A DNA stretch of 18,098 nucleotides, from positions 110,918 to 129,015 of the IMG/VR virus record IMGVR_UViG_2974695582_000001; one strand, given 5' to 3'. Below the pieces are notes generated by a model. That model worked only from the letters and a program-made list of their open reading frames with translations. It made no database searches and was not told where the DNA came from. The number at the start of each line of letters is the position of its first letter. Position 1 is the first letter of the stretch. The DNA is from a virus (Duplodnaviria > Heunggongvirae > Uroviricota > Caudoviricetes). Made by a program: the position numbers and the translations under genes. Below, piece after piece: positions 7,074 through 7,254 of the stretch.

Positions 7074-7254
7074 AAAGGTCGAATTGCCTCTTGGTAATGA
7101 GTCCGTAGGTAAAAGTCCGTTGCGAGCGGAATGAATGGCAACCTACTGCGGCTAACCTTTCTCCTAGACGCCTGATGACCCCCGGATTATGGATTTGATA
7201 GTCGCGAATATCAATTACCATAACATCGGTTGCAAACGATAAAGGGGTGAGGGG
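7074..7254 (+). ncRNA. Candidate structured ncRNA with two multibranch domains and a possible kink-turn
   Basis: No credible + strand ORF. Nested helices AAAGGT/ACCTTT, ATTGCC/GGTAAT, GTAGGT/ACCTAC, TCCGT/GCGGA, TTATGG/CCATAA, TTGATA/TATCAA, ATCG/CGAT and CCCC/GGGG. Confidence 0.6.

Follow-up and report, generated by a model that had tools for sequence, protein, structure and literature searches.

Which RNA, and whether one RNA or several, is encoded in a gap between small phage genes is the question raised by the DNA analysed here, a stretch of 18,098 nucleotides (nt), called the window below, which spans positions 110,918 to 129,015 of the IMG/VR virus record IMGVR_UViG_2974695582_000001 and is the right end of a Gilsonvirus phage (Streptomyces cluster BE; Loccivirinae) with 99% identity to phage Karp. 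The gap, about 400 nt long and poor in open reading frames (ORFs), lies at 6974–7378 and is flanked by small genes on the + strand. An earlier note, made from the window alone, had placed here a single uncharacterised RNA of ~180 nt (7074–7254) with two domains, starting at an AAGCUU element and freed at its 3' end by RNase P cleavage at a tRNA-like module. The complementary segments it named are all present where it placed them, and its broader claim of a promoter-driven, non-coding structured RNA agrees with the scarcity of ORFs, the conserved promoter and the covarying folds. The reading to which we lean, with modest confidence, is that one promoter serves two unrelated RNA modules and a tRNA mimic, that the second module (D2) and the mimic form an RNA of 152 nt, and that the first module (D1) resembles the core of RNase P RNA.

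The homologous gap was collected from 20 annotated phages (20+ phages in all) together with viral and metagenome contigs. The 900 bases around the locus are 99% identical to those of the Streptomyces phages Karp, Stigma and Belfort, with weaker matches in five further genera, and the order common to all phages is promoter, 5' hairpin with AAGCUU, a variable slot, the kink-turn (k-turn) domain and, directly joined to it, the tRNA-like body.

A discrete RNA of 152 nt

The k-turn domain and the mimic comprise the following features.

7162–7168, + strand: linker ending in the conserved AGA|C, with the 5' end of the stable RNA after A7168
7169–7254, + strand: D2, a predicted three-way junction closed by a k-turn, from covariation, a k-turn table of 21 sequences and the minimum free energy (MFE) fold
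7171–7173/7251–7253, + strand: C stem of the k-turn
7174–7176, + strand: bulge GAU of the k-turn
7177–7178 with 7249–7250, + strand: tandem G.A pairs of the k-turn
7179–7183/7244–7248, + strand: non-canonical (NC) stem of the k-turn
7189–7221, + strand: P2 of D2, with loop GUCGCGAA and outer stem 7189–7192/7218–7221
7225–7240, + strand: P3 of D2, a hairpin with loop GUUGCAAA
7255–7320, + strand: tRNA mimic, the 3' domain of the same RNA as D2, 'tRNA-OTHER' in the Karp annotation
7255–7261/7313–7319 and 7296–7312, + strand: acceptor stem and T arm of the mimic, from covariation

RNA data were taken from Logan contigs. Parts of the gap occur in seven public runs, and most of it in three runs of soil metatranscriptomes (X1–X3, all from one study); the contigs were mapped onto 5800–8800. 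Each of the three runs contains an isolated wrap-around contig of 183, 183 or 185 nt, a length equal to 152 nt plus 1 or 3 extra letters plus an overlap of 30 nt, the overlap that a cyclic unitig should have at k=31. Its span is precisely 7169–7320, with 0 mismatches and a different rotation in each run, and the joint from 7320 to 7169 holds C in two runs and CAC in one. Its depth is 17, 34 and 8, which is the highest of the region in X2 and X3, the bin 7416–7516 being slightly higher in X1. Since the wrap-around contig is present in three runs, there are molecules that begin after A7168, finish at the discriminator and have their ends joined, and D2 and the mimic together make up a discrete RNA of 152 nt (7169–7320). 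The 5' end lies two bases before the terminal helix of the k-turn and the 3' end at the tRNA discriminator position. The context 5' of the RNA start reads A|C in 17/21 relatives; the exceptions are BillNye, Circinus and Ankus, in which the aligned base is U or G, and Faust, whose AGAC lies one base further upstream. The stretches 7013–7168 and 7321–7360 are uncovered in X2 and X3, which is no evidence of absence.

Comparison among relatives supports the fold of this RNA. The joint model of D2 and mimic (C stem, NC stem, outer P2, P3, acceptor and T arm) is 97.1% paired with 7 double-change pairs in 16 sequences, its score is reached by 0/500 shuffles, and pairing falls to 30–44% when partners are slid by 1–3 columns. 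The MFE fold of 7169–7320 reproduces the comparative model and also pairs G7254 with C7320, bringing the ends side by side. A bulge between a Watson–Crick helix and tandem G.A/A.G is found in 21/21 distinct sequences, with both helices compensated; judged by its sequence, the closing motif is one that fits the k-turn signature, and the k-turn first proposed for 7171–7183/7244–7253 is thereby borne out across 21 distinct relatives. Within it the tandem GA/GA and the third bulge base (L3 = U) are invariant (21/21), the bulge bases L1 and L2 vary (GA, GG, GU, UU, AA), the 3b.3n position is C.U, C.C or U.G, and the 4b–4n pair switches from C–G to A–U. What the NC stem carries differs widely, from a GAAA tetraloop in the Annadreamy group to a 60-nt junction with two hairpins in the window, so that the invariant parts are the k-turn and the tRNA-like body. 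The two hairpins previously outlined at 7187–7223 and 7225–7240 have held up well: outer P2 and P3 covary, and inner P2 occurs as four stem sequences (UUGAUA/UAUCAA, CUCAUA/UAUGAG, CCCUA/UAGGG and CUUCUA/UAGAAG), all under loop GUCGCGAA.

Like Kt-7, the U4 small nuclear RNA (snRNA) 5' stem-loop and the terminal box C/D motif, D2 has a C helix, a 3-nt bulge ending in U and tandem G.A/A.G, followed by a non-Watson–Crick 3b.3n position and then the NC helix. It differs from known k-turns in that its C helix is fused to a tRNA acceptor stem and in that no L7Ae-family protein was found in the phage; we know of no earlier bacterial or phage case of a k-turn fused to a tRNA body. The window strands read CUGAUGA and GUGA, as box C and box D do, but D2 keeps only the k-turn core, without C'/D' boxes and guide sequences. 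A box C/D RNA was rejected for D2 as relatives read CUGUUGA, CCGGUGA or CUUUUGA with GCGA or GGGA, only UGA...GA being conserved, and show no second box pair. Similarly, a hammerhead ribozyme was discarded (the 3' strand has GA-GGGG where GAAA is required, relatives carry U in place of A6, and no Rfam hammerhead model matches), as were a T-box reading of the UGC-containing loop (relatives do not preserve the core, and no covariation links the P3 loop to the loop of the anticodon arm) and a pairing of GGAUU with the T loop, broken in Emma1919 and Wakanda. The D2 loops 7201–7208 and 7229–7236 each consist of G, a 6-base palindrome and A (GUCGCGAA, GUUGCAAA), and in the DekoNeimoidia loop AUUGCAAG the flanking G..A is swapped to A..G; by analogy, such palindromic loops resemble kissing-loop dimerisation sites.

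In the mimic, the acceptor stem and the T arm covary and the anticodon arm, a CUC-GUAA-GAG mini-hairpin in the window, is hypervariable (CGCAA, GUAA, GGAA, UAUUUU and longer arms). ARAGORN reports 0 tRNAs in the window, where the Rfam tRNA model also stays below threshold, and a true tRNA was rejected because there is no 7-nt anticodon loop and ARAGORN does not detect one. Since the anticodon arm is free to vary and the phage carries 34 ordinary tRNAs, including a tRNA-Cys(gca) elsewhere in the genome, the mimic would be kept for its shape and not for decoding. YrlA-class Y RNAs (RF02553; PMC4201824) are comparable in having a non-decoding tRNA-like domain (acceptor-like, D and T arms) within a stable non-coding RNA, and the phage encodes Ro60; they differ in that the RNA described here has no Ro-binding stem formed from its two ends, and the acceptor end of the mimic is free and processed like that of a tRNA. 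A YrlA assignment was excluded, as RF02553 has no match in 6800–7700 at E<=10; weak YrlA-like matches occur in the genome at 65–87 kb, outside the window. In Phredrick (locus positions 1153–1587) and Emma1919 (locus positions 779–1213), an HNH endonuclease gene follows the mimic, and there the acceptor 3' strand ends in GCGCGC versus GCGUAC elsewhere, with loss of the G.U pair.

The D1 pseudoknot and the RNase P RNA core

In the window, D1 precedes the linker and has the following parts.

7073–7161, + strand: D1, an 89-nt pseudoknot with 26 distinct copies
7073–7079/7155–7161, + strand: P1, with 4 covarying pairs
7084–7088/7137–7141, + strand: P2, long-range, with 3 covarying pairs and 99% paired
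7100–7101, 7103–7107 and 7109–7110 with 7145–7153, + strand: P4, 100% paired, with U7102 bulged
7117–7120/7126–7129, + strand: P18-like hairpin, which covaries
7131–7137, + strand: AUGAAUG, an invariant motif

The fold was derived with RNAalifold and pair counts on 17 sequences, after which 26 distinct sequences were aligned with a covariance model. The resulting model is 97% paired with 12 covarying pairs, and 0/500 shuffles reach its score; because P2 and P4 cross, D1 is a pseudoknot. The P4 core never varies, one pair in the 7100–7110/7145–7153 helix switches between G–C (15 copies) and C–G (11 copies), and AGUCCG with its bulged U, AUGAAUG and CGGCUAA are invariant. Covariation among homologs, which supports D2, upholds the D1 fold of the earlier note in part: the closing helix, extended to 7073–7079/7155–7161, and the hairpin now placed at 7117–7120/7126–7129 covary, but two other helices lack support. 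The hairpin at 7083–7098 shows no compensatory change, is broken in two lineages and is replaced by P2, and the helix GUAGGU/ACCUAC (7105–7110/7141–7146), 81% paired and likewise without compensatory change, gives way to the shifted helix 7100–7110/7145–7153. D1 is present as a single copy in the genome. A scan of the genome collection for it gave two matches, both coding and due to chance, and in a loose viral scan for diverged D1 copies none of the 79 new loci was matched by the D1 model.

The strand order of D1 is P1, P2, P3 (vestigial except in the L029 group, where it forms a real hairpin), an A-rich joiner, P4, the hairpin, AUGAAUG, P2', P4' and P1'. The consensus of bacterial RNase P RNA (RF00010) has the same order, P1/P2, P3, ..AAAGUCCGG.., P18, AugAAUG, P2', ..CCGGCUUA.., P1', and its segments read GAGGAAAGUCCGG after P3, AGAugAAUG before P2' and ..ACAGAACCCGGCUUA before P1'. 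The P4 core of D1, A-G-[U]-C-C-G / C-G-G-C-U, with A7100-G7101-[U7102] facing 7149–7153, is identical to that consensus letter by letter. Thus D1 has a P4 built from the equivalents of conserved regions (CR) I and V with a bulged U, enclosed in P1 and invariant in 26 sequences, a covarying P2 that crosses P4, and CR-IV ahead of the 3' strand of P2, so that its invariant segments correspond to CR-I, CR-IV and CR-V. A composite pattern (the two P4 motifs, CR-IV, P2 and P1 pairing) finds nothing but D1 in the 129-kb genome and is present in 0/40 shuffled genomes, the means over the 40 shuffles falling through 0.43, 0.075 and 0.025 to 0 as constraints are added; as the pattern was defined after D1 had been seen, it is only a rough guard against chance.

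It has been reported that P4 is the active-site helix and that CR-I, IV and V contact the acceptor stem (PMC4919922), and that yeast mitochondrial RNase P RNAs retain only P1, P4 (CR-I and CR-V), often CR-IV and a P18-like stem, down to ~150 nt (PMC3790967). D1 is most like these ascomycete mitochondrial forms, with the same strand order, the P2/P4 pseudoknot, the P4 core and AUGAAUG before P2'. It differs from known RNase P RNAs, the smallest of which have ~150 nt or more, in its 89 nt and in four unpaired bases between P1 and P2. Several findings weigh against a relationship: the Rfam RNase P models all fail to match D1, even when 111 bases are searched at E<=10; P5, J5/15, P15/L15, the ACAGAA of CR-V and the specificity domain (CR-II/III) are missing; the likeness was recognised post hoc and the shared stretches are short (6, 7–8 and 6 bases); and 8/21 copies have no tRNA within 600 nt, although D1 lies within ~200 nt of a tRNA or tRNA-like gene in 13/21 contexts, once inside a tRNA array (L050). 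Descent of D1 from the RNase P core, or mimicry of it, is to our mind an evenly balanced proposition on comparative grounds, and catalytic competence with a host protein is distinctly doubtful. D1 would then be a drastically reduced derivative or mimic of RNase P RNA that travels with phage tRNA genes and works with, or competes for, the host RNase P protein RnpA.

The strongest alternative, which we consider possible though not probable, holds that D1 is a cis-acting element of the 5' untranslated region (a riboswitch or protein operator) or some other small RNA, with a convergent likeness to RNase P. Many D1 copies stand just 5' of a start codon, ending 25–45 nt before it in many phages, and this fits a cis-regulatory element, as do the copies without a nearby tRNA, the silence of the Rfam RNase P models and the absence of most elements needed for RNase P catalysis. 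Yet the downstream gene differs among phages, D1 precedes an RNA and not a gene in the window, and in L050 it sits between tRNA genes. In addition, the helix that is invariant in D1 is the invariant helix of RNase P, with the same position of the bulged U and the same strand topology, and the composite pattern is absent from shuffled genomes.

Separate modules and the making of the 152-nt RNA

D1 and D2 are, as far as their distribution in genomes tells, independent and separately conserved evolutionary modules. D1 fills the slot 5' of the k-turn only in Karp-type phages; it lies 3' of the tRNA-like body in Gilson, Patelgo, Moab, Faust, Sham, TunaTartare, Blueeyedbeauty, Annadreamy and UViG 37510, and also occurs in viral and metagenome contigs with no k-turn motif or tRNA-like T loop within 600 nt (<=600 nt). 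Conversely, BillNye, Circinus, Muntaha, Wakanda, Ankus and DekoNeimoidia keep D2 and have no D1. Because D1 moves relative to the mimic and is missing from phages that keep D2, the locus holds two modules and not one RNA, and the proposed ~180-nt RNA 7074–7254 has to be given up, the contig 7169–7320 also leaving D1 out. Fold energies are not significantly better than those of shuffles (z = −0.33 for 7074–7254, −1.64 for D1 alone and −1.43 for 7169–7320), and thermodynamic stability alone does not single out the region. Rfam gave no family for D1 or D2, either at gathering thresholds on the window or at E<=10 around the site (6800–7700), in agreement with the label 'uncharacterised', nor did it on 111- and 151-base slices and seven relatives, where tRNA matches appeared in the relatives only; a weak SpF41 match at the locus concerned the T arm only and was set aside. 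The papers searched gave no description of D1 or D2, and nothing relevant on phage RNAs that combine a k-turn with a tRNA-like part, on circular RNAs of phages or on RNase P RNA encoded by viruses.

The ends of the 152-nt RNA may have been joined in the cell or in the laboratory. The same runs contain other wrap-around contigs made of mRNA pieces (7403–7606 and 8065–8436), and X2 contains a chimera that joins 7526 to an unrelated tRNA at its 3' terminus (which reads ACC and is short of the last A), so the ligation may have taken place in vitro during library preparation. The RNA, moreover, stems from soil metatranscriptomes of one study and not from a defined infection, and no L7Ae-family protein was found in an actinobacterial control genome either, which leaves the k-turn without a known reader; these points all count against the reading preferred here. 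A circle formed in vivo is therefore conceivable but not the outcome that we expect. Processing of the 3' end as in a tRNA, together with CCA-type addition, would account for where the RNA stops and for the pyrimidine-rich extra letters, although not cleanly, as C and CAC are no clean CCA. Circular box C/D small RNAs reportedly occur in hyperthermophilic archaea. They are comparable in being small RNAs with termini held beside a k-turn and found ligated, and the phage genome encodes an RNA ligase; here, in contrast, the 3' half is a tRNA mimic, the genome is that of a bacteriophage and the joined ends are those of sequence contigs.

According to a more sceptical view, D2 is a mere stabilising leader of a decaying tRNA-Cys gene, the wrap-around contigs are complementary DNA (cDNA) library artefacts and the whole is a functionless remnant. 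BillNye-type relatives indeed have a tRNA-Cys-like gene at this place, scored as tRNA by Rfam, and the further wrap-around and chimeric contigs point the same way. However, the acceptor, D and T arms and the k-turn are compensated across at least five genera with only the anticodon arm varying, and the loop is odd in the 'tRNA-Cys' versions too, being CGCAA on a 5-base-pair stem; an artefact would still require molecules with defined ends at 7169 and 7320, and the joint appears even where contig depth is only 8. We regard this view as rather unlikely.

Less probable again, and indeed improbable, is the original model of one ~180-nt non-coding RNA that runs from AAGCUU to 7254 and is freed by RNase P at 7254/7255, as in MALAT1/mascRNA. 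The acceptor stem and T arm of the mimic are intact, AAGCUU elements coincide with RNA contig ends elsewhere, and a minor processed fraction may have escaped the contigs; but the contigs of three runs cross 7254/7255 unbroken and begin at 7169 with D1 left out, D1 and D2 are separable in their distributions, and the leader bases beside the cleavage site are base-paired. The likeness to MALAT1/mascRNA lies in an anticodon-less, tRNA-shaped element that recruits tRNA end-processing enzymes, including CCA-type addition; the difference is that in MALAT1 the upstream RNA is released by an RNase P cut on the 5' side of the mimic, and here D2 stays attached. A role of the inverted repeats at the DNA level (as operators for dimeric proteins or as an origin-like region) and not as RNA is hardly credible, for although the P2 and P3 loops hold 6-base palindromes (TCGCGA, TTGCAA) and both hairpins are near-perfect DNA palindromes, the stems change sequence yet stay paired, G–U included, which fits RNA over protein–DNA recognition, and the region is recovered as discrete RNA contigs.

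Under the preferred reading, the promoter at 6985–7013 would fire into a non-coding transcript carrying D1, D2 and the mimic. GGGG at 7251–7254, the final four bases of the leader, would be held in the k-turn C stem abutting the acceptor stem, and since the leader is paired in this way, RNase P would find no single-stranded leader and would not cut. The mimic may still recruit tRNA 3' processing and CCA-type addition, the k-turn would fold the three-way junction back along the acceptor/T arm, and the two RNA ends, lying side by side, could then be ligated, whether by the RNA ligase of the phage in vivo or in the course of library preparation in vitro. This would yield a stable tRNA-shaped RNA that is unable to decode and possibly circular, most likely a decoy or scaffold for a host or phage factor that binds tRNA ends. 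The boldest version of this picture, in which BE-cluster phages encode the smallest known RNase P RNA (an 85–130-nt P1–P2–P3–P4–P18 core with host RnpA) as well as a k-turn-capped mimic that escapes RNase P, is CCA-type-tailed and is circularised in vivo by the phage RNA ligase, appears unlikely in its entirety. If D1 were an RNase P RNA derivative that works or that titrates the protein, we could trace no earlier one encoded by a virus, and its size, well under the known limit, would make it a test of how small the RNase P core can be. The RNA of D2 and mimic would offer a way of making a tRNA-shaped RNA that RNase P leaves uncut, and, if its circle is made in vivo, a natural substrate for the widespread phage RNA ligases and a natural counterpart of engineered circular RNA scaffolds.

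Promoter, flanking elements and genome setting

The elements around the two modules are as follows.

6985–7013, + strand: promoter TTGACA-N17-TAAGGT, driving the non-coding transcript, hexamers and spacing kept in all relatives
7029–7072, + strand: 5' hairpin directly followed by AAGCUU (7067–7072), one of ~17 such elements in the window
7326–7345, + strand: 3' hairpin with stem GAGGU/ACCUC and loop ACCAUAAA, the stem varying and the loop invariant in relatives

The promoter claimed at 6985–7013 is supported by its conservation in relatives and by the reality of its class: TTGAC-N17-19-TANNNT occurs at 20 sites in the window versus 1.6 expected, with 19/20 on the + strand (e.g. 1376, 6090, 6985 and 9238). 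At several of these sites the −35 element falls within a hairpin loop and the spacer contains AAGCTT. Meanwhile, ~17 GC-rich hairpins directly followed by AAGCTT are found on the + strand between 444 and 10113 of the window (e.g. 7581–7608 and 8410–8437), and CAAGCT is the commonest hexamer of the window. Two of these elements contain the end of a wrap-around RNA contig, one at 7606 (after AAGC) and the other at 8436 (after AAGCU), so the AAGCUU elements may be processing sites or RNA 3'-end sites. No RNA contig ends at the copy 7067–7072, and the RNA of D2 and mimic starts at 7169, so a 5' end set at that copy, as had been supposed, finds no support. The 3' hairpin lies outside the 7169–7320 RNA; its stem is GGGAU/AUCCC or GAGAU/AUCUC in relatives under the unchanged loop ACCAUAAA, and BillNye-type phages have a strong terminator in its place.

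The slot 5' of the k-turn holds another conserved module in UViG 37510 (locus positions 1050–1150) and DekoNeimoidia (locus positions 500–585), ACCGUGAGGUCCG ... CGGGUAGCCAAAACCGUG within a long closing helix, and yet another insert in BillNye; to judge by these arrangements, it seems to behave like a cassette site for structured RNAs.

The genome is 129 kb long with terminal repeats, the window being its last 18 kb. Besides the 34 tRNAs it encodes a tmRNA (77592–77869), a Ro60 (TROVE) protein (69509–70372), whose gene was confirmed in the phage genome, and an RNA ligase, identified by a PF09414 match at genome positions 104358–104870 and by its counterpart in Karp, gene 203, annotated 'RNA ligase'. 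Searches of the phage genome for L7Ae (PF01248), RtcB, a CCA-adding enzyme and RnpA found none. Taken with the phage's Ro60, Y RNAs, tmRNA and 34 tRNAs, the locus points to an unusually rich phage RNA-processing toolkit. Immediately 5' of the promoter, 6842–6973 encodes a very basic peptide of 43 amino acids with the motif FCGSKCC; neither it nor the neighbouring small proteins match a Pfam or PHROGs family. The peptide is 86–100% conserved in Kenrey, Faust and Sham and is a candidate RNA-binding partner.

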